Origin: Actinomycetes bacterium
GTDB taxonomy: Bacteria > Actinomycetota > Acidimicrobiia > Acidimicrobiales > SZUA-35
Reading direction: 5' to 3'
Assembly: GCA_024280015.1 (NCBI GenBank)
Contig: JAJRQY010000006.1
Coordinates: 11-64,010, forward strand
DNA: 64,000 nucleotides
A program made the position numbers and the translations under genes. The notes beneath the pieces are model-generated. The model ran no database searches, was not told the origin of the DNA, and was given only the letters and a program-made list of their open reading frames with translations. Of the stretch, positions 4,017 to 62,523 are shown in pieces; within the stretch, counting starts at the first letter, position 1; the number at the start of each line of letters is the position of its first letter.

Positions 4017-4856
4017 TTGCCCATGTCACGAAGCAGCCAGAAGCGATCCTCGCGGGTCTTTGACCTTCCGATTCATCGATGCTCAAGGTGGATTTTCAAT
4101 TGCTATGTGATCGAGGGCGACGACAATCAGACCGTCATCATTGACCCAGGCCTTCCTAGCACCGCTGCTCTGTCGATTGATCTCATCACTCGGCTGGGTC
4201 GATCCTCAACAGAGCTGCACAGTATGGCAACCCATGGGCATAGCGATCATGTCGGTGGCCTGCCGATGATGCGTCAGAGGCTCGGCTCGGCCACCCACTT
4301 GCCGGGCCTGTGCGAGAGCTATCTGCAAGGTACCAAGCCCCGGGCCTTTGGTAGCGACGCTGCCCTGCGTTTTTTGCCGATCTTTGGACAGCAGCCCTTC
4401 TCTGGCACAGCCTTGCGGGAGTTTGTTGGCGGTAGCACGAAGATCGGATTTGGCGGTCAGGCCGAACAGTTCCAGTTCCCCTATGAGCCAACCGGGTTCT
4501 TGCAAGACGGAGATCGGGTTCCTGGTGGCAAGGAATGGGAAGTGATTGCATCACCTGGTCACGCTGATGAGGCCGTGAGCTACTTTCATGCAGACTCGGG
4601 CACATTGTTGTCCGGTGACGCCGTCGTCACCCTTGACGGGGAGGCCTGGTTTAATCCCGAGTGGGTTGATGAAACCGCGTGTCGCCAGACTGAAGAGCGA
4701 CTGCGTTCCCTTGACGTGAACTATCTGTTGCCGGGCCATGGCCTCCCCATTTGGGGCAATCCGTGGAAGCAGGCAAAGTCATTCAAGGACCAGCCTCAGG
4801 GTCGCGGTGGATTGGCTCGTTGCTCGCGCCGCTTTGGGGGCTGGGACTCGTTGTGA
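4017..4856 (+). CDS. MBL-fold metallo-hydrolase
   Basis: HxHxDH motif (THGHSDHVGG) plus downstream PGHA and PGHG His motifs. TTG at 4017; an alternative ATG lies at 4023. Confidence 0.8.
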   Translation: MPMSRSSQKRSSRVFDLPIHRCSRWIFNCYVIEGDDNQTVIIDPGLPSTAALSIDLITRLGRSSTELHSMATHGHSDHVGGLPMMRQRLGSATHLPGLCESYLQGTKPRAFGSDAALRFLPIFGQQPFSGTALREFVGGSTKIGFGGQAEQFQFPYEPTGFLQDGDRVPGGKEWEVIASPGHADEAVSYFHADSGTLLSGDAVVTLDGEAWFNPEWVDETACRQTEERLRSLDVNYLLPGHGLPIWGNPWKQAKSFKDQPQGRGGLARCSRRFGGWDSL

Positions 4857-4897: not shown

Positions 4898-5761
4898 CTA
4901 CTTGTCAGCGCTAACGGCGAACCCGGACATGAAAGGCTTCTGGAGCGCGATGAAGACGAGGGCCGGTGGTAACGATGCGAGGAGCGCGGCCAGCATGAGC
5001 GGCCCATAAGTGATTCCCGTGTCGGTGCTCTTCAACCGCTCCAGGCCCTGTTGAACGACCTGGCTGTTGGGGTCAGAAACAATCAGGACTGGCCAGAGGT
5101 ACATATTCCACACAAAGACGAACTGGATTACAGCCAGGGCACCAATCACGTTCCAGGACAACGGAATGAGGATCTTGAACAGGAATTGAAGGGGCGACGC
5201 CCCATCAATTTGTGCTGCTTCGGACAGGTCCTTTGGCAGGTTGGCGAAGTGCTGTCGGAACAAGAAAGCTCCAGTGGCTGAAGCGGCAAAGGGGATCACG
5301 AGTCCCGCCATGCTGTTCTTGAGGCCCAGATCAGATACGAGCCGGAACATGGCCAGAATCATGACTTCGGTTGGCATCATCAGAGTGATGAGTACCAAGA
5401 AGAAGACAATCCATTTGCCCCGGAAGGAGAAGTAGACAAAGGCCAGGCCAGCCAGCAGTGACAACACCGTCTTGATGACGGTGATGAGTACCGCTTGAAC
5501 GACAGAGTTCCACATCAGTCGACCCAAATTGGCACCATTCCAGACCTGATCAAAGTGAGTACCTAACGAGGAACCGGGTGTAAGCTGGAAGTTGTTGATC
5601 TGGGTATTGGACTGGGTGGAGATCAGTGCCGCGTAGGCCAAGGGGAAGACGACAACGGCAATGGCAAGCAAGAGGGAGACATGGCGGGGCCAGTCTCGTC
5701 CGCGGACGATGCCGACCTTGCCAACATTCATGGTCAGGTTGTCTTGTTCACGAACCCGCAT
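4898..5761 (-). CDS. carbohydrate ABC transporter permease (UgpE/MalG-like)
   Basis: Six-TM permease with an EAA-type loop (LSEAAQIDGASPLQFLFKILIPL). I trimmed the start from 5809 to the MRVREQ ATG at 5761, and 5731 is also possible. It overlaps the upstream permease stop. Confidence 0.85.
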   Translation of the reverse strand: MRVREQDNLTMNVGKVGIVRGRDWPRHVSLLLAIAVVVFPLAYAALISTQSNTQINNFQLTPGSSLGTHFDQVWNGANLGRLMWNSVVQAVLITVIKTVLSLLAGLAFVYFSFRGKWIVFFLVLITLMMPTEVMILAMFRLVSDLGLKNSMAGLVIPFAASATGAFLFRQHFANLPKDLSEAAQIDGASPLQFLFKILIPLSWNVIGALAVIQFVFVWNMYLWPVLIVSDPNSQVVQQGLERLKSTDTGITYGPLMLAALLASLPPALVFIALQKPFMSGFAVSADK

Positions 5762-7097
5762 AGCTGACCCGCCCTTCTGATTGACGGAATTGCCAGGCCG
5801 TAAGGCCAATCACCGCGAGGAACAAGAGCACCGATTGGGCCGCGCCCTTTCCGATGTTCTGGTTGTTCACACCAACCCGGATGATCTCATAGATGGCCAC
5901 CGAGGTCGAACTGGCTGGGGCACCCTTGGTCAATAGGTCGACGGTTCCGTATACCTCAAAGAATGAGTAGGTCAGGTTGGTGACCAGCAGGAAGAAGGCG
6001 ATTGGGCCGAGCGCAGGCATCACGATGAGGCGGAACCGTTGCCAGGCGTTCGCTCCGTCCAGGGTCGCCGCTTCGATTTGGGCTCGAGGAACCGTTTGCA
6101 GGCCAGCGAGGAAGAACAGCAAGTTATAGCCCAACAGCTTCCACACCGAGGCTAGGACAATGACCCCTCGGGCCATTCCCGCGGAGGCGGTGTAATTCGG
6201 GAACTCAATACCAATCTTGTCGGCGAGGAAGGCAAAGATGCCGGCAGTGGCGTTAAACATCATGAAGAACAAGATTCCCGCAACCGGGGGCGAGATGGCG
6301 TAGGGCCAGATCAGCAAGGTCCGATAGACGGTGATTCCCCGTATGCGCCCGAAGGCAAGGTACGCCATCGCTAGTCCAACCGTCATTGCCAGAGCAACGA
6401 TTGAGAGAGAAATGATGATGGTGTTCAGATAGATGAGCCGATAGCCGCCAGTACCGGACTCGGTTTCGAACATGAAATAGAAGGCGAAGACCACAGCCAA
6501 GATGCCCATGGGCTGCAAGGTCTTGGCAATGGAGTGAGACCGAGTTCCCGGCGTAGAGCGCTTGCTCCACAGAGCGACGCCCCAGATCATGGCGATAGCC
6601 ACCAGGGGAAGCATGGCAATTCGTGTTGGGCTCTCAACCATCAGGTCAGAGAAGTTGCTGAGGCACCGGTCAGCGGTCCTTGGCGACGTCAGGTTGGCCA
6701 GCTTGGTGGACAGGGTGAAGGTCTGGAAGGCCGGAAGGTAGAGAAACAGGATCAAGATGAGCAGGGTGGGTGAGAGAAGCAACCACGGCCAGTACCAGCC
6801 GAGCTTGTAGGTTCCCGAGCGGTTCTCGCCTGAGCCAAGATCGGCTGAACGCTGTCCCAAGACAGCACGGGTGCCAGCGCCGAACATCCAGGCAAAGGCG
6901 CCTGCTAGTCCGATTCCCAGCACGGCCTCGGTCGAAGCTGCATCGGCGGCGAAGGTGCAGAGCCGCAGGGATCCGAGTATGACTGAGCCACCGAGTAGAC
7001 CAAGGGCAGCGCCCATGGCGCCCTCCCGGACGGATTTGTATCCGAACGAGAGGGCACCAAGTAGTGCTGCAACAATAATGCTGGCAACAATACCCAT
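5748..7097 (-). CDS. carbohydrate ABC transporter permease (UgpA/MalF-like) with extra N-terminal TM segment(s)
   Basis: EAA loop IEAATLDGANAWQRFRLIVMP. The ORF-track start at 7229 overlaps the SBP gene, and the ATG at 7097 (MGIVASII...) lies just after the SBP stop at 7105. About 130 aa of hydrophobic extension precede the canonical WYWPWLLLSPTLL helix. Confidence 0.85.
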   Translation of the reverse strand: MGIVASIIVAALLGALSFGYKSVREGAMGAALGLLGGSVILGSLRLCTFAADAASTEAVLGIGLAGAFAWMFGAGTRAVLGQRSADLGSGENRSGTYKLGWYWPWLLLSPTLLILILFLYLPAFQTFTLSTKLANLTSPRTADRCLSNFSDLMVESPTRIAMLPLVAIAMIWGVALWSKRSTPGTRSHSIAKTLQPMGILAVVFAFYFMFETESGTGGYRLIYLNTIIISLSIVALAMTVGLAMAYLAFGRIRGITVYRTLLIWPYAISPPVAGILFFMMFNATAGIFAFLADKIGIEFPNYTASAGMARGVIVLASVWKLLGYNLLFFLAGLQTVPRAQIEAATLDGANAWQRFRLIVMPALGPIAFFLLVTNLTYSFFEVYGTVDLLTKGAPASSTSVAIYEIIRVGVNNQNIGKGAAQSVLLFLAVIGLTAWQFRQSEGRVSYAGS

Positions 7098-7104
7098 CGG
7101 CGTA

Positions 7105-8487
7105 TCAGCCGTTGAGTTCGTTGTAGTCATCCAGCAAGGTCTGGGCCTCGCTTTGAGCTGAACCCATGCGCTCGGTGACGTCGACGTCATTGACGAGGAT
7201 GTCTTCGATGGCGAGGGTGACAACGTCACGGATGGAAACGAAGTTTCCGAGCAATGCTCCGGTGGAAGCCGGGGTATCGGCCGCAGCGTTCAGCTGGTCA
7301 GAGGCAACGAGGGAGTTTGGTGACTCGGTGTACCAGCCCTCGCTCTCAAGCTGGGCAACAGCGGCATTGGTGATTGGGATGTAGCCGGTCAGCTTGTGCC
7401 AGTCGCCAGCGTTCTTCGGGTTAGAGAAGAAGTTCAAGAAGGCAAGAGCGCCATCTTGTTCGGCGGTTGACAGGCCACTGGTCATCCAGATCGTCGCTCC
7501 ACCAATCAGGTTGCCAGCGTAGGCGGCATCCCCATTGTGAGGCATGAAGGACGAACGAACATCGACACTATTTTCCTTACCAGTGTCGGTGAGGACGGTG
7601 GTATCGGATGATGAGTACACCAGCATGGCGACGTTGCCAGCATTGAATGCTGATGCGGTGCCAGCCCAGTCTCGCTGGGTTCCGGTGTAGACGTAGTGTC
7701 CGGCATCCTCAAGGTCACTCCACCACTGGACATAGTCCAAAGCAGCATCGGAGTTAAGGAATACTTCGGTTGCCCGATCGGCACGACCGTTCTCGTTGTT
7801 GGCAAGGTCGGCGCCAGCCTGACCAAGTGCTTGCTCGAAGAACCAGCCGTGGTTTGGCCAGGTAATGCAACCCTCAGACGGAGCATCAGGCAGAGCCATG
7901 ATGGCGTCACATGCTGCTTCGACCTCAGCCCAGGTGTCGGGCGGATCAGAAATACCAGCTGCTTCAAGGATTCCCATATTGGAGAACATCGTGGTTGTCG
8001 AGGTGTTCCAGGGCATTGAGTAGAGCTGGTTGTCAATGGTGTAGTACTTGGTTGCCGCCGAAACGACGTCGTCGATTACCACTGGTTCGCCCAGGATTTC
8101 ATCGCGGCCGTCAATCGCTTCGGTTACCGAAGCAAAGATGGCATTGCCGTCCTTGTCCTTTGCGTCCAGAGCTTGCTGGGTTGCAGCCTCGAAGAAGTGG
8201 ATGAGTTCTGGCGGGTTGCCGTCATCGATGGCGAGCGCAGCCTGCTCAAAGACGGTGTTGTATGAGTCGAAGGACTGGACTACGACGTTGTACTCCGGAT
8301 GAGCCGTATTGAACTCGGCGGCCTTCTCCTCAGTAAATCCCTTGCGGGCATCATCACTGAATGCGATCCACATGTCGATAGTCACAGGATTGTCTGCGGT
8401 CGCAGCATCTCCTCCGCCATCGTCACTGCCGCCACAGGCGGAAGCGATTAGAGCGAATGCAGTTAATAGTCCGAAAATTCTCTTCAT
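7105..8487 (-). CDS. ABC transporter substrate-binding lipoprotein (sugar / glycerol-phosphate type)
   Basis: Lipobox LIASAC at the N-terminus. 460 aa, a typical family-1 SBP size. It is the first gene of the SBP-permease-permease operon. Confidence 0.85.
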   Translation of the reverse strand: MKRIFGLLTAFALIASACGGSDDGGGDAATADNPVTIDMWIAFSDDARKGFTEEKAAEFNTAHPEYNVVVQSFDSYNTVFEQAALAIDDGNPPELIHFFEAATQQALDAKDKDGNAIFASVTEAIDGRDEILGEPVVIDDVVSAATKYYTIDNQLYSMPWNTSTTTMFSNMGILEAAGISDPPDTWAEVEAACDAIMALPDAPSEGCITWPNHGWFFEQALGQAGADLANNENGRADRATEVFLNSDAALDYVQWWSDLEDAGHYVYTGTQRDWAGTASAFNAGNVAMLVYSSSDTTVLTDTGKENSVDVRSSFMPHNGDAAYAGNLIGGATIWMTSGLSTAEQDGALAFLNFFSNPKNAGDWHKLTGYIPITNAAVAQLESEGWYTESPNSLVASDQLNAAADTPASTGALLGNFVSIRDVVTLAIEDILVNDVDVTERMGSAQSEAQTLLDDYNELNG

Positions 8488-8648
8488 GAGAACTCCTCTC
8501 CTAGTTGGACATTTTCAGTCACCCTAGCCAGGCAGAGGGGACTGAAACCGTGAAAGTAACAAAAAGCCTTTTGATCACTCTGAGCGGTTCAATCAACACA
8601 GAAGAGTGGGTTCCGCTTCGCGGGGCTGAAGGCCTAAGTTGGTTGCCA

Positions 8649-10442
8649 ATGAGAGCCTCAGAGTCCCACTGCCCGAAGTGTCATCAACCTCGGCCCAAGC
8701 GGCCAAGTTCCTTTGATGTTGCGGAAACACAATTCGCTAGGAAGGCGGCGATTCGTTGGCATTCGCCCAAGACGTTGGCGCGAGCCGGTAGCCACGCTCT
8801 CATGTTCAAGATTGTCGGTGGCTTCAGTGACCAGCGAGACACCCAACGCTTCTTGTCTTCGGCCATCGTCGAGGTGCAGCGTCCCTGCTCGGGTCCCGGC
8901 GGGCAACCTAGCGATGAGATCTGGTTTGACTACTTTGCCGACAGCGGAGATGGATTTGATGCCTGCGCCACTGTGGCCTATCTCCTAGCTCAGGAGACCG
9001 TGGATCTCGCCCACCCGGTGAAATCGACGCCAGGAGACTCTCCTGCAGAGGAACGGCCGGTGCGAACAAGACGGGGGTCACTCCTGATCCACGGTGGTGA
9101 TGCCGTCTATCCGGTTGCAAGAACCCGTGCCTATGAGGACCGATTCACCGGCCCGATGCGAGCAATGCTCGACCACACGTGTGACGAGCATCCAATTCTG
9201 GTCGGGATCCCTGGCAACCATGACTGGATGGATGGACTGAATTCCTGGTCCAAGATCATGACCCAAAAGGGCTGGGTTGGAGGATGGCGTACCGCTCAAG
9301 AACGTAGCTATTTCGCCTCCAAGCTCTCTGAGCATTGGTGGATGCTGGGGGTGGATGCCCACCTTGGTGAGTACTTGGATGAAGGCCAGATTGAGTTCTT
9401 CAAGGAGACCGCCGCCTCTTTTGCTCCGGGAACACAGGTCATCTTGTGCGTCCCGACTCCAACCTGGATCCATCAGTCCAGACATTCGGAGGCTCACCAA
9501 GTCTTGGACTACCTGATCCGCAAGTCTCTCAAGGGCCGGGCCGAGGTTCGCCTCGTCCTGACGGGAGACCTCCATCACTACTCTCGCTATGAGGCTGAAC
9601 CTGCCAGCAACACTCATCTGATAACCGCGGGCGGCGGTGGTGCGTTCTTGTCTGCCTCCCACTGGTTGCCGCCTGAGATTGTCCTTCCGGCGGCTGAGTC
9701 GCGGGACCAGGGGAAGTCGGATCCGGTCCAGTTCGAGCAACGCTGTGTCTATCCAAGTGCGGTCCAATCCAAGGCTGTTGGACGACGTTGGCCGTCAATC
9801 CTTTGGCGCAATGGCGGCTTCCCTCTCATCATTGGCGTGCTGTACCTCGCTTTGGGGTGGAACGTGCTCGGAGCCTCACCCGATTCGCTTTCAACGGAAG
9901 CTCTCTGGTCGGGGCTCTTTCGTCCGGGCACCGTGTTCTGGTTGGCTGTGAGTTTTGTCTTTTGTCTGCTGGCGGCAAAGTCCAAGGCAGCAAAAGCCTG
10001 GGTGGTGGCCGTCCCGCACCTCGGCCTACATATCTTGTCGCTCTCGGTGCTGGCCACTCTCAGCCGGTTCCTATTTGAGAACCTTGATGCATCCTTTCGG
10101 GTGTCTCGGTATCTTGGTTCTTGGTTCGTAGCAGGCACCGGGGCCATTCTTGGCACCCTGGTCTCGTCCTTCGCCTTCTTCCTTGCTGATCGTCGCGGGT
10201 TAGACCACCTCTTTTTGTCCTCCGGCATTCGCAGCACCCAGTACCGGAACTTCATTCGTATGAGGCTGGATGCTGAGGAGACGTTGACTGTCTTTCCCAT
10301 TGGGATCGATGAGTCCCCAAAAGACTGGGCCGCGAACAGCGACGGTGAGGGATCCTGGTTTCAACCGGACAGGCCTATCCAGCCGCACCTTATTGAAGAT
10401 CCCATCGTGATTCCCCTTTGCCCCAATGAGCGGCTGGGATAG
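8649..10442 (+). CDS. metallophosphoesterase fused to a C-terminal polytopic membrane domain
   Basis: Calcineurin-like motifs D-SGDG, GGDAVYP and GNHDW, then at least five hydrophobic helices after about residue 430. The start is uncertain: TTG 8505, GTG 8550 or ATG 8649. I chose 8649 so that the SBP promoter region stays free. Confidence 0.7.
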   Translation: MRASESHCPKCHQPRPKRPSSFDVAETQFARKAAIRWHSPKTLARAGSHALMFKIVGGFSDQRDTQRFLSSAIVEVQRPCSGPGGQPSDEIWFDYFADSGDGFDACATVAYLLAQETVDLAHPVKSTPGDSPAEERPVRTRRGSLLIHGGDAVYPVARTRAYEDRFTGPMRAMLDHTCDEHPILVGIPGNHDWMDGLNSWSKIMTQKGWVGGWRTAQERSYFASKLSEHWWMLGVDAHLGEYLDEGQIEFFKETAASFAPGTQVILCVPTPTWIHQSRHSEAHQVLDYLIRKSLKGRAEVRLVLTGDLHHYSRYEAEPASNTHLITAGGGGAFLSASHWLPPEIVLPAAESRDQGKSDPVQFEQRCVYPSAVQSKAVGRRWPSILWRNGGFPLIIGVLYLALGWNVLGASPDSLSTEALWSGLFRPGTVFWLAVSFVFCLLAAKSKAAKAWVVAVPHLGLHILSLSVLATLSRFLFENLDASFRVSRYLGSWFVAGTGAILGTLVSSFAFFLADRRGLDHLFLSSGIRSTQYRNFIRMRLDAEETLTVFPIGIDESPKDWAANSDGEGSWFQPDRPIQPHLIEDPIVIPLCPNERLG

Positions 10443-56437: not shown

Positions 56438-57016
56438 CTATTGCATCCCCGCAGAGGTAACGGTGCGTTGAGATACCTCAACCAGGTCGCCACGCTTAAC
56501 GACATAGGAAATCACCTTGTCGACTGAGTGTTGGCCCGAACGAGCCTTGCCGCTGACTACATCCAGTTCCATCCCGTTGAGGATAGGGAGCAGAGCGACA
56601 GCTCGGAACCCGTCTTCGGTCCCCGGAATGGAGCGCTTGTCTTCCCGAATGAGTTCGCCAGATTCCCATATCCAAGTGTCATCCACGCTGATAAAGCGGC
56701 ACCGATGACTGGCTCGGGATTTGGAGATGATTCCGCCAGGGCAGACAACAACATTGCCTTCAACCCAGGGGTTGACGCCTAAACCGTCGCGCCCGAAGCC
56801 GACCTCGAAAGCGTTGGCAATGATGGCATCGAGATCGCCCCTGCTGACGGCTCGTTCGCGCTGCAGCTGGTGGACGACCTCGCCGATGTTGGATAATTCA
56901 TCATCAGAGAGCTTTTTCAAGACGCGGACTGCTTCCTCGGGATCGCCATTGAGAAGCTTGGCTGCGGCGTTGATTCGGCGCGTCGAGGCCGGTCCTTCTG
57001 TCGTCACGCCAGACAT
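56438..57016 (-). CDS. hypothetical protein co-transcribed with the aquaporin
   Basis: Its stop directly abuts the aquaporin start. I prefer ATG 57016 (MSGVTTEGP...), with GTG 57034 as an alternative. The ORF-track start at 57208 lies inside the inserted element, and after conceptual excision the frame is closed by a TAG with no start upstream. Confidence 0.55.
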   Translation of the reverse strand: MSGVTTEGPASTRRINAAAKLLNGDPEEAVRVLKKLSDDELSNIGEVVHQLQRERAVSRGDLDAIIANAFEVGFGRDGLGVNPWVEGNVVVCPGGIISKSRASHRCRFISVDDTWIWESGELIREDKRSIPGTEDGFRAVALLPILNGMELDVVSGKARSGQHSVDKVISYVVKRGDLVEVSQRTVTSAGMQ

Positions 57017-57047
57017 GATGCCTTCAGCCACTGACAATGCGGTCTTG

Positions 57048-57178
57048 GGGGCGACGCGAGGAAACGGACTTTTTTGTACGTTAAGGATCCGAGAGATCGA
57101 CCCAGCACCGATGACGGACCTTGGCGTTTGCGGCCCAGGTTCTGACCTCTGCCCGAAATCTCGTACGTATCCGAGCAG
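57048..57178. repeat. left terminal inverted repeat (38-bp Tn3-type core 57048-57085)
   Basis: See the mobile element entry. Mismatches to the right copy at 57114 and 57170. Confidence 0.9.
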
Positions 57179-57493
57179 ATCCGAAGCCTTCTTCTCGCGA
57201 CTCGTCAACCAGACCTGGTATCAAGAAAGCATTTCGAGAATTGTCTGTGAGAAGCCGAGAACCCGCTGATTACTGTGCGAGTGATCTGGTTGTGCCTGCT
57301 TCTCATTTACCGCCGTTTTCGAGAAGAGGAGGCGACTTGACTCATCGATGACACCATGAGCGGCACGACCGGTCGCCGTGAGCGCGGCCCCGGGCTAAGG
57401 ACCGTTCAGCTGATAGTTCTCGGCGGTTTCAACTTACGCCTGGTGAGAGTGTCCGGAGAGCGACTGCGGCTCTGTGACCTGAGGGAGTACTCG

Positions 57494-57531
57494 CTTACCG
57501 TACACTGTGGTCCGTTTCCTGGCGCCACCCC
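57494..57531. repeat. internal third 38-bp IR (29/38 identical to the TIR core), oriented as a right end
   Basis: CTTACCGTACACTGTGGTCCGTTTCCTGGCGCCACCCC versus the right-end core CTTAACGTACAAAAAAGTCCGTTTCCTCGCGTCGCCCC. Together with the left TIR it bounds a 484-bp unit. Confidence 0.65.
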
Positions 57532-57740
57532 TTCTTGACAGTGTGCAAACGCATCCCCCAACAACCGGAAAAATGGAGATACATCTGGAGGTCCCGATGG
57601 AGCCTCCGTTTGCACTAGGACAGACACAAGATTTGTTACACCACAAATTGCGTCTTTAGGGAGACTCGTGATCCACTCAGAAGATTGAGCAACCCGGCCA
57701 GCAAACCATTGATGACTACCAACCCGAACCCGTCCTTGGG

Positions 57741-58286
57741 TTGCGGGCCGTAGCCAACATGTGCGGCGTGTCCCTCGCCACCCTCAAACGCCGCATCACT
57801 GACGGCCTCCTACTCGAAGCATTCAAACAAGCCAGTGGCAGCCATGACCGGCTGCAATGGGTGATCTGGGACCATGACCTAGAAACCATTGCCATTAGAA
57901 ACAACTGGACTATTGACCGGGCCCGAGACGATGACGACGCCCGCTCTCTCCAAGAAGCCCGCACCGTCCTACGCCAAACCCGCAAGGCTCTGCAACGAAC
58001 CACTAGAGAGCTAGAAGCCAGCCAAGACCGGGTCAAGCGTGTTCAATACGATCTGGATCAGGCCCGGCATTATGCCCAGGTCCAGGGCGAGAATATGGAC
58101 AAGCTGCGGGCTGAGCACCGCCACCAGGTCGACATCCTGATTTATGGGCATGACCCTGCCTTGGTCAAAGCCGAGAATGAGGCCAACACTGCCCGATCCC
58201 GCAACCGTCAACTCAGTGACCAGAACCGTCAACTCCAAGCTACGAATCAACGCTTGACTGGTATTGAGCAGACCCTGACCGCTTAG
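57741..58286 (+). CDS. HTH (excisionase/MerR-like) plus coiled-coil protein carried by the element
   Basis: N-terminal RAVANMCGVSLATLKRRITDGLL fits the HTH_17-type pattern. The remainder is heptad-rich and charged (QTRKALQRTTRELEASQDRVKRVQYDLDQAR...). TTG start. Confidence 0.6.
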   Translation: MRAVANMCGVSLATLKRRITDGLLLEAFKQASGSHDRLQWVIWDHDLETIAIRNNWTIDRARDDDDARSLQEARTVLRQTRKALQRTTRELEASQDRVKRVQYDLDQARHYAQVQGENMDKLRAEHRHQVDILIYGHDPALVKAENEANTARSRNRQLSDQNRQLQATNQRLTGIEQTLTA

Positions 58287-58397
58287 ACCCTCGGGATGGT
58301 TCATTGTTGATGCTGCCAGCACTAGCACCAACTGACCGACTACCTTTAAAATCAAGCCCGGCCCTAACTGGCGGCGCCGGTCAAATGGAGCACCACC

Positions 58398-60022
58398 ATG
58401 CGGCCACAAGATCCGGTACCAACCGAGCCTCGTTCTACAACTAGAACCAGGACCCGGAGATCTCCCAAAAGCTACGGCGTAGCCCTGCGACGAACTCTGG
58501 CTCTTTCCATCACCGCCACCGTGTTCGGCCTATCGGTCATCTCCCCTGCTTCTTCAACACAAGCCGAACCAGATGACCCCAAAGAACAGCCAACAGTCGA
58601 GACACCGACCGAAACGCTGCCTGACGGGACAGACATTGAGGCTGGTCTCAGCGCCCGCCTCCCCGAGGACGTAGCCAACAGTTGCCGGATGCTCAAAGCC
58701 GAACACACCGACCGGTCTCTCCGGGAAATGCTCAGCCTGAATCCAACCCCGCCAAAGACAAGCAACCTTGTTGAGGCCTACGGGATCGAGGTATCAGCAG
58801 ACGAAGCAAAATTCCTCAACAGAGCCGCCGCAGTCAGTGAAGGTATTAACGAGTACGAACTCATTGACGCCGCCGTCGAGATTTTTGGTGATTCCTATGT
58901 TGGGATCACCTTCGATTCGGCCGGGTTCTATCGCGTTCACTATTTGGCTGATCTGCTCGATAGCAAGACTGCTCCAATCCACCTTCGGGAACTGAGCACC
59001 AAGTTCGGGTTCGCTGACAACGAGCTGGTGTTAACCCCGGTGACCCGAGGCGTTGAGTCGGAAACTGCGTACGCCAACTACACGAGACTCAATGACGCCG
59101 CCACCGAACTGTCAGAAACCGGGAACGTAATCGAGTTTTCTTTGGGTGAATCTTGTGGCCTCATAGCGGTGTACACCAACAAAGATTCTGTCGACAAGCA
59201 ACCGAGGCCGTCAGCAAGTTCGTTGATCCTGATGAGTTCGTGGTCTTGATCATTCAGGATTCTGAGCAAAGCATCGACCTCGGTCGGGAGAATTCCCATA
59301 ACCCCTACCTCGGTGGGGCCGCTGTCGGCCTCACTTCAGGGAGTTCCACGGCCATGGGTTGCACCACCAACATTGGCTAGTACAAGAACACGCCGTCAGG
59401 CCAACAATGGTGGGGAGTGACCGCAGCTCATTGCGTTGGGACGCAACTGTGGTATTCAGCTGGAACCTTCGCCACAGTAAGCCTGAACTGGTGGCAGGGA
59501 GCTGATACTGATATCAACAGCGGCGGAACTTCGACCACGTATTTCGTGTACGGCGGCGAGATGGATATAGCGATCGTACAGATCGACCGGAGTGCAGTGC
59601 CGACAACAATCACCAACGATCCACCTGTCGGTCCTGGAGTCAGGTTGGACCTCGATTGGTGGCATTGGGCACCGACCATGGATCGGCCTAAGGGTGCTGT
59701 GCCTGGTCATACCATGTGTCACTCTGGGAAGACTTCCAACTTCATTCGGTGCGGTGAGTTGTTGACCCGCACACACTCATTCACGGTCAAAAAGTCAAAT
59801 TCCCCTCTCGGCGTAGCATCATATTTCCACCACATGCACAGGGTTGCTACTGGCGGATTGCCTGGTGATAGCGGTGGGACCATTTGGCATGACCAAGGAC
59901 CAGGCGGCGATGACAACCTGGTCGGCGTTCTTAAAAGCGGAAGTTCTACTCGCATCAATTACTCCCATATTTCGTATCTGAAATCAATATTTGGTCTCAC
60001 GGCACCGGCCGGAATGTCCTAA
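58398..60022 (+). pseudogene. secreted S1-family (alpha-lytic/streptogrisin-like) serine protease precursor, disrupted by one frameshift and one in-frame TAG
   Basis: Signal peptide plus pro-region in frame A (58398-59249). The continuation is in frame B from about 59195 (…ATEAVSKFVDPDEFVVL…NPYLGGAAVGLTSGSSTAMGCTTNIG), then TAG at 59378-59380, then in the same frame YKNTPSGQQWWGVTAAHCVG...DIAIV...GDSGG (59381-60022). Confidence 0.7.
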
Positions 60023-60441
60023 TGATCGGCGGCGGGAAAACCACTACTGTCCTGAGCCTTGGGTTGGTCTGGTTTGCTGTTGCTTGCACCGGATCAGACA
60101 GTGCTGACTCTCGACCAACTTCGGTAGCTGGGGAGATAGCTGCGAGTTCTGAACCCGGCACGACAACAACGAGTGACCCTTTCCCAGGGACGTTTCCTGA
60201 TGGCTTCGATCTTGAGCAGGTGATTGCTGACGTTGACTCAGGCAAAGAAAAGTGGCTCGACCAGTCCTTGTTTGCTGGTGTTTCGGTAGAAGCAGCTGAG
60301 GAGTGGGCTGAGCAACATGGGTTCACGAACGTCATCGTTGCTGATCTTGATGAGGACATCGACGCTATTGGGGGACCGGGGAGAACTCTTTTGGTTCGGG
60401 TCCTTGATGGTGTTGTCCAGTCGGCGCATTCCACCCTCTGA
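60022..60441 (+). CDS. lipoprotein with potato-inhibitor-I / I78-like protease-inhibitor motif
   Basis: Lipobox FAVAC. The C-terminal segment KWLDQSLFAGVSVEAAEEWAEQHGFTNVIVADL...GRTLLVRVLDGVVQSAH resembles the W-x3-L-x-G-x-SVE-x-A...V-x-V...R-x3-V core of I13/I78 inhibitors. TAATG overlap with the protease stop. Confidence 0.45.
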   Translation: MIGGGKTTTVLSLGLVWFAVACTGSDSADSRPTSVAGEIAASSEPGTTTTSDPFPGTFPDGFDLEQVIADVDSGKEKWLDQSLFAGVSVEAAEEWAEQHGFTNVIVADLDEDIDAIGGPGRTLLVRVLDGVVQSAHSTL

Positions 60442-60750
60442 AGCTAATAATTGGGGTCTGAGGAGGGGTGGCGCAGACGCTCATTGGTGCACAATAGGGC
60501 TACGAGGGCCACTCGGGCTCTTCACTTGGTCTCGTCACGGGTGACAGCCTCAAACGCGAGTCGTTCAACGACCTAAGGGAGTACCGCTGCTCCCGCGACG
60601 TTCCGGGTCTCAGATCGCTGCCTTTGGGAAAACGCCCCGATATCGAGGGCCGAACAATGAGCAAGCAGAGTCCAAGACCCCAAGGCCAGGAAACCTGAAT
60701 CCAAGGAGGATCCATGTTGTACGAAACGAAACATGGCGTTGCTTGCCTGA

Positions 60751-60881
60751 CTGCTCGGGTACGTACGAGATTTCGGGCAGAGGTCAGAACCTGGGCCGCA
60801 AACGCCAAGGTCCGCCATCGGTGCTGGGTCGATCTCTCGGATCCTTAACGTACAAAAAAGTCCGTTTCCTCGCGTCGCCCC
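60751..60881. repeat. right terminal inverted repeat (38-bp Tn3-type core 60844-60881)
   Basis: Reverse complement of 57048-57178. Confidence 0.9.
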
Positions 60882-60957
60882 TCTTGGGGCCCTGGTTGGA
60901 TTGCGATGCGTGTTCCGAAAGGATGAATTTTCTGGAAAGTAGCTGTAATCCAGAAAC

Positions 60958-61653
60958 CTAGTCGCCAGAGGTGAAGGCGAGGCGCAGACCGAGTCCAACC
61001 ATGACGGCTCCGCCTGTTGCTTGGAGCCGCTGGAGACGCCTGGGCGAAGAGGCGAACCAGTGGCGGGCGGTTCCCGCCGCCATGGCCCAGACACTGTCCA
61101 ACACCAGGGCGATGAGAACAAAGACACTCCCGAGAACAAGAATCTGTAGCCACAGTGCGCCAGCCGAGGGGGCCGTGAACTGGGGGAGAAAGGAGACGAA
61201 GAAGACAATCAGCTTGGGGTTGGCTACTCCGACAACGAAACCATCAACCAGACTCCGTCGGGTGTCGAGCGCTGGGGATGTGAGGCCTGGCTTGTGGCCT
61301 GTCGAGTCACTGGGTCCGGTGGAAGCGACAACCTCTGCACCCGGTTCACCCTGTGGTTTTCTTGAGCGCGACTTCGCCATGGCCTGGATTCCGAGGAAAA
61401 CGAGATAGCCAGCCCCGATCAGTTTGAAAGCAGAGAAGAGAACGATTGAGTGACTGAGGACAACCCCTAGTCCAGCGGCGACCGTAGTGACCTGCACCGC
61501 AATACCCAGTGCGTTGCCAGCCACGGTGAGCAGTGCGGTTCTTCGTCCTGCTGATATGGCTCGACTGATTACAAACATGACGCTGGGGCCCGGAATGACG
61601 ATGAGGACCACCGATACCAGGGCGAAGGTGAGTAGAGAGTCTGTGGGTGGCAT
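60958..61653 (-). CDS. LysE/RhtB-family amino-acid exporter
   Basis: N-terminal LLTFALVSVVLIVIPGPSVMFVISRA motif typical of LysE translocators. A hydrophilic loop insert of about 40 aa is present. Confidence 0.8.
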   Translation of the reverse strand: MPPTDSLLTFALVSVVLIVIPGPSVMFVISRAISAGRRTALLTVAGNALGIAVQVTTVAAGLGVVLSHSIVLFSAFKLIGAGYLVFLGIQAMAKSRSRKPQGEPGAEVVASTGPSDSTGHKPGLTSPALDTRRSLVDGFVVGVANPKLIVFFVSFLPQFTAPSAGALWLQILVLGSVFVLIALVLDSVWAMAAGTARHWFASSPRRLQRLQATGGAVMVGLGLRLAFTSGD

Positions 61654-61686
61654 GAATATGATGTTTGGATGGAGAGTGGGGCCGTG

Positions 61687-62523
61687 CTAGCGGGACTGAC
61701 GGAGATCAACCCAGCTGAGGGTGAAGCTTCGGGTGAGAGACTGGCCTGGCTCCAACCGCTGGTCAAGTGAATTGGGGGCATGGTTGAAGACATCGGGGGA
61801 CGATGATTGGGGCTCAACACAGAGGGCGTGCTCGGGCCGGTCATAGACAACCCAATGGTCACAATCTGAGGTGAGGATGAGTCGGAGCTGCCCTGGCCAG
61901 GTCAGGGTTATGGGCGCGGCGATGCCGGTAAAGCAGTTGTCCCAGGGCCCGTCGGAAATGGCGACAAGTGAGCCGGTTGGAATGTCGTCCTCGTCCAGCT
62001 CGTACATGGACTCCGCAGCCAAGGACAGCAGAAGTGGCTCAGCTGCAGGGGACAGGACTCGTCTGAACCATGGGTGCCAGCCAACCATGGCGGGCATAGC
62101 GCGCGCTCCTGCCTTAACGCAGAGTGTGAGGGTTAGGGATTCTTCGGTGAGCCGAACTCGGTGGGTGACGCTGCCACCAAGGGGCCAATGGTCATCCAAT
62201 TGCAGACCCAGCGTCTGTTCATCGATCTGGTCCCAGGGGCGGAGAAAGCCGACCCCGTGAAGAGAGTGGTCATTCAGTGGCCCGGTTCCGGGATCGACTC
62301 GAAGTTGGTGGAGCTCACCGTCAAAGACAAACCTGGCCTCACGGACACGCCCTGCCCACGGAACCATGGGGTAGACGCCCCAAAGCATTGGTAGGGCAGG
62401 GTCTGATTCAGAACACTGGTTACGACCAACAAGAAGCTCTCGGTCGAATACTCTCAGTGACGAGAGTCGGCCGCCACGCTGGGGGTCGAGCTTGGCAGAA
62501 GCGCTGCCCGCTTGGAATTGCAC
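61687..62523 (-). CDS. aldose 1-epimerase family protein
   Basis: YPMVPWAGR, HSLHGVG, WHPWF and CVEPQSSSPDVFN motifs of the galactose-mutarotase-like fold. Confidence 0.75.
   Translation of the reverse strand: MQFQAGSASAKLDPQRGGRLSSLRVFDRELLVGRNQCSESDPALPMLWGVYPMVPWAGRVREARFVFDGELHQLRVDPGTGPLNDHSLHGVGFLRPWDQIDEQTLGLQLDDHWPLGGSVTHRVRLTEESLTLTLCVKAGARAMPAMVGWHPWFRRVLSPAAEPLLLSLAAESMYELDEDDIPTGSLVAISDGPWDNCFTGIAAPITLTWPGQLRLILTSDCDHWVVYDRPEHALCVEPQSSSPDVFNHAPNSLDQRLEPGQSLTRSFTLSWVDLRQSR

Follow-up and report, generated by a model that had tools for sequence, protein, structure and literature searches.

The window analysed here, a stretch of 64,000 nt from an Actinomycetes bacterium (Acidimicrobiales; SZUA-35; assembly GCA_024280015.1, contig JAJRQY010000006.1, positions 11 to 64,010 of the forward strand), carries at 57048-60881 an element of 3,834 bp that we read, with a probability of about 0.88, as a non-autonomous Tn3-family transposon, more precisely a mobile insertion cassette (MIC) that is mobilised in trans. 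An earlier note on this DNA, made from its letters, had already proposed a MIC-like Tn3-family cassette, and that proposal is supported by the ends of the element, by its target-site duplication, by uninterrupted sites in related contigs and by a cognate element, L011, that encodes the transposase TnpA. Coordinates are window positions unless preceded by an L number, which denotes a related contig or locus. The parts of the element, with the evidence for each, are the following; here L022 and L024 are contigs that share parts of its cargo, and P0123 is an intact homologue of its protease.

57043-57047, no strand: left copy of the target-site duplication, TCTTG (sequence; relatives have a single pentamer, TCCTG, here).
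57048-57085, plus strand: left 38-bp terminal inverted repeat (IRL), GGGG...ACGTTAAG (sequence; comparison with the inverted repeats of L011 and of the Tn21 subgroup).
57048-57178, plus strand: left 131-nt arm, the native copy (repeat search; L011 homology across its inner border).
57120-57178, minus strand: 5' relic of a serine resolvase gene (tnpR), reading toward IRL and present also in the right arm (nucleotide alignment to L011 4717-4777).
57179-57325, plus strand: res-like block, homologous to the region between tnpR and tnpA of L011 (alignment to L011; half-sites).
57494-57531, minus strand: internal, diverged inverted repeat (IR'), 29/38, in right-end orientation (repeat search; inverted-repeat scan; boundary of L022 homology).
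57532-58276, plus strand: block of captured flank DNA, comprising a conserved upstream region and a helix-turn-helix (HTH) gene (84.5% identical to L022 1570-2294).
57684-58286, plus strand: gene for the HTH / long-helix protein (L022 homology; substitution rates; AlphaFold2 model).
58398-60022, plus strand: pseudogene of a secreted S1 (trypsin-like) protease (frame reconstruction; alignment to P0123; Pfam Trypsin in homologues).
60022-60441, plus strand: lipoprotein gene with lipobox AVAC, its start overlapping the protease stop (TAATG) (sequence; list of open reading frames).
60442-60750, no strand: non-coding spacer (no similarity to L011, L022 or L024; no Rfam match).
60751-60881, minus strand: right 131-nt arm, a truncated inverted copy of the left end (repeat search; arm alignment).
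60844-60881, minus strand: right terminal inverted repeat (IRR), the outer 38 nt of the right arm (identical to IRL).
60882-60886, no strand: right copy of the target-site duplication, TCTTG (sequence; comparison with the empty sites).

The two arms, reported by the earlier note as 131-bp terminal repeats matching at 129 of 131 positions, were recovered as such by a repeat search and by arm alignment (98% complementary), the only mismatches lying at 57114 (A/G) and 57170 (T/C). Their outer 38 nt are identical at all 38 positions (GGGGCGACGCGAGGAAACGGACTTTTTTGTACGTTAAG), and this core, searched with up to three mismatches allowed, occurs exactly twice in the window and gave matches in 0 of 100 shuffles. 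The ends show what is characteristic of the Tn3 family, namely terminal inverted repeats (IRs) of about 38 bp that start with GGGG and finish inward with ...ACG(Y)TAAG, so that their earlier description as canonical Tn3-type cores holds, in line with the 36 to 37 of 38 positions that they share with the IRs around the L011 tnpA. No further IR remnants were found in the window beyond the two ends and IR'. The earlier note had taken identity past 38 bp to be unusual for this family, but it is less so than supposed: Tn3-family IRs are described as '38 to 40 bp or sometimes even longer' (PMC7157771), and those of the Xanthomonas MICs can, like the arms of the window cassette, exceed 38 bp (33-97 bp, with 92 bp in TnXax1; PMC4337579). 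As the earlier note had also stated, no TnpA or resolvase lies inside the element, and tblastn and Pfam searches detected neither there nor in the whole window; transposon-type IRs thus surround only passenger genes (HTH gene, protease pseudogene and lipoprotein gene), which is the anatomy that defines a MIC. The G+C content of the element is slightly lower than that of the window (0.557 vs 0.579). A small open reading frame in the arms (57121-57351 and 60500-60808) was ruled out as a real gene, there being no third-position pattern.

Comparison with related contigs established the insertion directly. Three contigs, L026 (CAZITP010000005.1), L027 (VAPK010909895.1) and L028 (SRR6439371), encode an identical 192-aa version of the conserved hypothetical protein next to the element and share 86-93% nucleotide identity with the window; each of them has the conserved hypothetical gene immediately after the LysE-family gene, and alignment with the window breaks off at the element edges. 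The earlier note had predicted an empty site reading ...CAATGCGGTCTTGGGGCCCTGGTTGG..., and these contigs match it almost exactly with ...CAATGCGGTCCTGGGGCCCTGCTTGG..., while the site is likewise uninterrupted in L020, a more distant relative (83%). The pentamer occurs once in the relatives, as TCCTG, and twice in the window, as TCTTG on both sides of the element, which fits the duplication of a single target pentamer and bears out the 5-bp target-site duplication of the earlier note. Because four related contigs are uninterrupted and the alignment breaks exactly at the element edges, the 3.8 kb is a genuine lineage-specific insertion: one unit of 3,834 bp, its Tn3-type ends identical, entered the site and duplicated 5 bp of it. 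The earlier note had considered that relatives might carry the same 3.8 kb without a duplicated TCTTG, or that the repeats might be the edges of a larger segmental inversion. The relatives instead lack the 3.8 kb and have one pentamer, and we rejected the inversion, which the empty sites contradict.

The existence of an autonomous, TnpA-encoding relative with similar IRs in this lineage, which the earlier note had left to be checked, was confirmed in Acidimicrobiales. In 185,579 species genomes a degenerate IR pattern was matched at 17 loci, among which the window IR type was found only in L011, an uncultured Acidimicrobiales contig (CAYUOD010000091.1) from a metagenome-assembled genome (MAG); the same kind of scan over metagenome contigs added only L018, a second fragment of the L011 element. 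This element spans L011 4176-7925 (3,750 bp), and its IRs, at 4176-4213 and 7888-7925, are identical to the window IR at 36 and 37 of 38 positions. Its 987-aa open reading frame is a Tn3-family transposase (Pfam DDE_Tnp_Tn3, 2.3e-145, and DUF4158, 1e-42; NCBIfam transpos_Tn3, 1112 bits) that matches the structure of the Tn4430 transposase over its full length (5e-208), and the tnpA stop codon is the TAA within CTTAACG of the right IR. On the opposite strand, divergent from tnpA, lies a decayed serine resolvase gene, tnpR (4240-4800, minus strand; Pfam Resolvase, 5.4e-34 for a stitched 179-aa product and 8e-14 for an untouched 74-aa open reading frame), which is full-length but inactivated by two or more frameshifts and by an in-frame stop codon within MLIG*ARVST. 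This divergent tnpR/tnpA arrangement is the classic Tn3 layout. The L011 element also occurs in the metagenome assembly (VAPK01) from which two of the empty-site contigs come. As a separate observation, a related IR type, GGGGTC.CGTCAGGAAACGG...ACG(C/T)TAAG, is widespread in Acidobacteriaceae MAGs and in Candidatus Cardinium and occurs in slightly varied form in Asaia (loci L004/L005, L008/L009 and L013-L017; L001, L003, L006 and L012).

Alignment with L011 also clarified how the left end is built. The earlier note had counted about 0.9 kb of the cassette as non-coding DNA; this DNA contains a third IR, a tnpR relic and a res-like block. Positions 57120-57325 align with L011 4717-4921 at 68% identity over 207 nt, and since that part of L011 contains the first codons of tnpR and the tnpR-tnpA intergenic region, 57120-57178 is a tnpR 5' relic (LLGYVRDFGQRSE, compared with MLIG*ARVSTTDQ in the first codons of the decayed L011 gene) and 57179-57325 a res-like block. 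TCGAGAA-like half-sites number six in 176 bp against 0.6 expected, an enrichment of about ten-fold, and lie mostly at positions common to L011; the region has no coding periodicity. Further inward, IR' closes an IR-bounded miniature unit of 484 bp (57048-57531), a small non-coding unit between two inverted Tn3-type 38-bp IRs identical at 29 of 38 positions, as in the miniature Tn3-derived elements known from Pseudomonas as TIMEs. Its right edge is a true end, confirmed by the boundary of the L022 homology. Because the homology to L011 continues inward past 57178, where the left arm ends, that arm stands in its native context and the right arm is a derived, truncated inverted copy, which supports the suggestion of the earlier note that both ends come from duplication of one end. 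The right arm ends at about the start of tnpR, and nothing inward of it resembles 57179-57531, so that only the outer 131 nt of the unit are present there. No tnpA remnants were detectable in 57326-57493 or 60442-60750, and Rfam gave no match for the element or for the left end of L011.

The cargo begins with captured flank DNA. L022, a contig that lacks Tn3-type IRs, is homologous to the window from 57532, the base next to IR', onward, and thus shows, in a donor-like genome, the uninterrupted target (TTCTT) of the miniature element. Within this block the HTH gene has lost its native ATG start, which reads ATT in the window (usable starts are the TTG at 57741 or the ATG at 57759), and its 3' end is replaced after 58276. 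Only two homologues of the protein were found in 5.8 billion proteins, one of them on L022. Against L022 the ratio of nonsynonymous to synonymous substitution rates (dN/dS) is 0.14, also when the 19 codons upstream of the listed TTG are included, and the gene accordingly evolved under purifying selection. The AlphaFold2 model (predicted local distance difference test, pLDDT, 71; predicted template modelling score, pTM, 0.32) has three or four short N-terminal helices followed by a long helical hairpin. Pfam, NCBIfam and PHROGs returned sub-threshold hits only, and there was no significant PDB sequence match; the relation to TnpT/TnpC-like accessory proteins that the earlier note had raised was not detectable, and the gene belongs to the captured flank.

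Several further observations concern this block. In L022 two 61-nt inverted repeats (1585-1645 and 2617-2677; 80% complementary) bracket the HTH gene, and the upstream one forms a hairpin, GTGCAAACG...CGTTTGCAC, that is retained at window 57543-57615 (fold z-scores of -2.4 in the window and -3.5 in L022). The 152-nt region upstream of the gene is 85% identical between the two, above the conservation of synonymous sites (dS 0.44). This arrangement may serve the HTH protein as an operator, or may mark the ends of a further small mobile unit. In addition, the hexamer TTCTTG that follows IR' (57532-57537) resembles the outer duplication TCTTG with an offset of one base and is native in L022; the resemblance is probably a coincidence or the product of a T-rich target preference (TTCTT and TCTTG here, TTCCA in L024).

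The second part of the cargo is a protease-lipoprotein pair. The decayed secreted S1 protease recognised by the earlier note was confirmed by comparison with the intact P0123 (519 aa), to which the reconstructed 542-aa product aligns end to end (37% identity, E 2e-108): near 59200 a frameshift joins frame 0 (58398-59249) to frame 2 (59150-60022), and at 59378-59380 an in-frame TAG replaces TGG, aligned to a Trp of P0123. With the lost ATG of the HTH gene, these lesions show that the cargo of the cassette is now decaying. The protease family is a small one, with only 26 members in 1.84 billion representatives (full HMMER search). The motifs TAAHC and GDSGG are present, and of ten homologues scanned four score above the threshold of Pfam Trypsin. 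The reconstructed protease had no match in a word-indexed search, a fragment of it matched no PDB sequence significantly, and no homologue was found in plasmids. For the lipoprotein, Pfam, NCBIfam and PHROGs hits were sub-threshold only, no family or structure match was obtained, and the AlphaFold2 model (pLDDT 38.6) is unusable. Exact-protein look-ups for the HTH protein, the lipoprotein and the neighbouring LysE-family protein gave no record.

A lipoprotein gene also lies 3' of the protease homologue in L023 and in L024, the L024 lipoprotein being weakly similar to that of the window (36% over 91 aa, E 0.016). In L024 the intact pair is enclosed in a different Tn3-family derivative (5613-9628), which L025 also represents. 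The 38-bp IRs of this derivative are 92% complementary, TTCCA is perfectly duplicated around it, and its tnpA, truncated at the 5' end, equals residues 445-967 and shares 35% identity with the L011 TnpA. The IRs of L024 share only 19-21 of 38 positions with the window IR. The pair, being found inside this second derivative too, is therefore recurrent Tn3-family cargo. We note that the cluster of the L024 protease at 90% identity or more (P0124) includes P0155 (216 aa) and P0156 (178 aa), encoded on one 11.7-kb NCBI contig, which suggests that the protease gene is split, and possibly decayed, on that contig as well. Conceivably, the passenger pair combines a secreted protease with a cognate lipoprotein that has a protective or inhibitory role. 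It is tempting but doubtful to go further and propose that the orphan S1-like protease and its co-translated lipoprotein constitute a dedicated selectable passenger module of actinobacterial Tn3-family elements, in cassettes that would have been built by a route undescribed for the family (from one miniature element and a duplicated truncated end, not from two full copies). What such a module would have behind it is a pair carried by two elements of about 20/38 IR identity, one without tnpA and the other with a tnpA fragment.

Some observations weigh against a trans-mobilised cassette. The L011 copy has no clean target-site duplication (CAGAT vs TATAT), and the cognate TnpA comes from another MAG, none being known from the source genome, of which the 64-kb window was surveyed. 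Further copies, for which the earlier note had suggested looking, did not appear: neither the cassette nor the 484-bp unit was found a second time in the genome, metagenome and viral IR scans, which thus gave no sign of repeated mobility, and a DNA search of plasmids and phages with the cassette and the left 484 bp gave no match. Because a repeat search of the res-like block saw no strong or clear dyad, a res site at 57179-57325 is a candidate supported by where the block lies, by its homology and by its enriched half-sites. How the right arm was made is likewise an inference.

Part of this evidence would suit a dead relic, that is, a once-mobile cassette for which no compatible TnpA is left in the lineage and whose sole importance would be that of an insertion mutation in front of a host operon. 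In its favour are the decay of the cargo (frameshift and stop in the protease, ATG>ATT at the HTH start), the single copy found and the fact that in the L011 partner, too, the resolvase gene has become a pseudogene. The terminal IRs are, however, still identical at 38 of 38 positions and the arms at 129 of 131, the target-site duplication is intact, the insertion is missing from contigs that are only 7-10% diverged, and a full-length TnpA open reading frame with near-identical IRs exists in the same order. We therefore consider this alternative possible but clearly the weaker choice.

A mobilised cassette would also be mistaken if the structure had been built in place by nested or successive events, with the 484-bp unit arriving first and the cargo and right arm later, or by an intramolecular replicative inversion, instead of by one 3.8-kb insertion. 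The left 484 bp are indeed a self-contained IR-bounded unit, and the TTCTTG next to IR' recalls the outer duplication, but this hexamer is native to element-free L022-like DNA. Moreover, a direct 5-bp duplication flanks the outer IRs, and the relatives lack all 3,834 bp with precise breakpoints, whereas an intramolecular inversion would bracket native neighbouring chromosome and give no direct duplication; the cargo is foreign to the locus in all relatives. Assembly in place thus appears improbable. Least credible of all is a chimeric join at the repeats during metagenome assembly, for although the source is probably a metagenome-assembled contig and 131-nt repeats can confuse assemblers, mis-assembly does not yield a precise 5-bp direct duplication of the host target around perfect Tn3-type ends, nor would it restore a colinear host backbone matching four independent contigs.

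For the cassette read as a trans-mobilised transposon, a mechanism can be suggested from what is known of the family. Transposition in the Tn3 family is replicative, with a cointegrate intermediate that undergoes resolution at res (PMC7157771), and both MICs and TIME-derived composites of this family are mobilised in trans with 5-bp duplications (PMC4337579, PMC4133298). In the present case, the target-site duplication, the empty sites and the existence of L011 suggest mobilisation by a Tn3-family TnpA supplied in trans from a related element such as that of L011. This TnpA would recognise the two identical 38-bp terminal IRs and carry out replicative transposition with duplication of the 5-bp target (TCTTG), and the cointegrate would be resolved at the res-like block (57179-57325) by a trans-supplied resolvase, or else by host homologous recombination.

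The anatomy of the cassette likewise allows a history to be proposed. A Tn3-like element with the classic order tnpR<-res->tnpA may have lost most of tnpR and all of tnpA, leaving the 484-bp miniature element (57048-57531), which would then have inserted beside the HTH gene in a donor genome at the target TTCTT. An inverted, truncated copy of the left end (131 nt) would next have been placed 3.2 kb downstream, bracketing the HTH gene and the protease-lipoprotein pair. Finally, the outer identical IRs would have moved the whole unit into the intergenic region between the LysE-family gene and the conserved hypothetical gene.

The two host genes that flank the insertion are:

56438-57016, minus strand: conserved hypothetical gene of Acidimicrobiales, the element lying 31 nt upstream of its ATG (845 homologues; synteny in L026-L030).
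60958-61653, minus strand: LysE-family gene, on the other side of the insertion (Pfam LysE, 1.7e-28).

The 845 homologues of the conserved hypothetical protein measure about 189-199 aa, and the few with a named source are from Acidimicrobiales, Actinomycetota or Actinomycetia MAGs; the next gene has homologues in related contigs that match Pfam MIP. The insertion point is downstream of the stop codon of the LysE-family gene, and the cassette separates the conserved hypothetical gene and the gene following it from the upstream LysE-family gene and from the native intergenic region. The insertion may alter the expression of these two genes; promoter and terminator scans gave nothing beyond the shuffle expectation, with no promoter-like site in the arm. 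Gene order around this locus varies among relatives. In L021 (2109-3679, corresponding to window 60958-62523) the LysE-family and aldose-epimerase genes have exchanged places and both lie on the strand opposite to that of the conserved hypothetical gene, an arrangement that differs from the window, and in the 4.37-Mb relative L029 (L029/L030 9120-10001) the LysE-family gene is missing between the epimerase and conserved hypothetical genes.

Transposase-less cassettes with Tn3-family IRs and 5-bp duplications are already known from the Xanthomonas MICs and from the TIME-derived composites of Pseudomonas; the novelty lies in the host lineage, in the hybrid architecture and in the cargo. The Xanthomonas MICs, which are bounded by TnXax1 IRs (Ferreira et al. 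2015; PMC4337579), resemble the window cassette in that Tn3-family IRs flank passenger genes without a transposase, with 5-bp duplications, and in that TnpA is presumed to act in trans from a related autonomous transposon. They differ in host (Xanthomonas, as opposed to uncultured Acidimicrobiales of the Actinomycetota), in their unrelated IR sequence (GAGGG tip vs GGGG in the window), in number (clusters vs the one copy seen) and in cargo, which consists of transcription activator-like or type III secretion system effectors, whereas the window has the orphan protease-lipoprotein pair and the HTH gene. Furthermore, the left end in the window keeps an internal IR, a tnpR relic and a res-like block, unlike in the Xanthomonas MICs.

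The TIMEs of Pseudomonas, including TIME-COMP and TIME-RES (Szuplewska et al. 2014; PMC4133298), are similar in that DNA next to a miniature Tn3 derivative with 38-bp IRs is captured, which gives a larger non-autonomous transposon with 5-bp duplications, a likeness which for the window element is drawn from sequence. As in TIME-RES, part of the resolution module is retained, but the window has a res-like site only and no resolvase gene. Captured TIMEs measure 262 bp, compared with 484 bp and diverged IRs (29/38) for the left unit of the window, and a TIME-COMP has two complete TIME copies, whereas the right 'copy' in the window is a 131-nt truncated end. L011 is alike in its IRs, identical at 36-37 of 38 positions, in a homologous tnpR 5' end and intergenic block and in a host of the same bacterial order; L011, however, has a full-length TnpA, a decayed tnpR and no passenger genes, whereas the window has neither gene and 3.2 kb of cargo. 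The best annotated relatives of the L011 TnpA belong to Tn21-subgroup transposons (Tn1721/TnAs3-like; plasmid NC_011092.1; about 60% amino-acid identity), which have the same IR length and layout and, as in L011, the tnpA stop inside the IR. Their IR has 22 of 38 positions in common with the window IR, and they are proteobacterial plasmid transposons with resistance genes, unlike the window element and L011; in NC_011092.1 tnpR and tnpA are colinear, as opposed to divergent in L011.

These findings do not change what is known of how the Tn3 family works. They do prove, by means of empty sites, that Tn3-family transposition has recently taken place in Acidimicrobiales, an actinobacterial order that is uncultured and little studied, by a cassette whose anatomy appears to record its own history of miniature element, captured flank DNA and duplicated end. 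They also flag a rare protease-lipoprotein pair as recurrent transposon cargo, and the ends of the cassette together with the L011 TnpA offer a matched pair with which trans-mobilisation could be tested.

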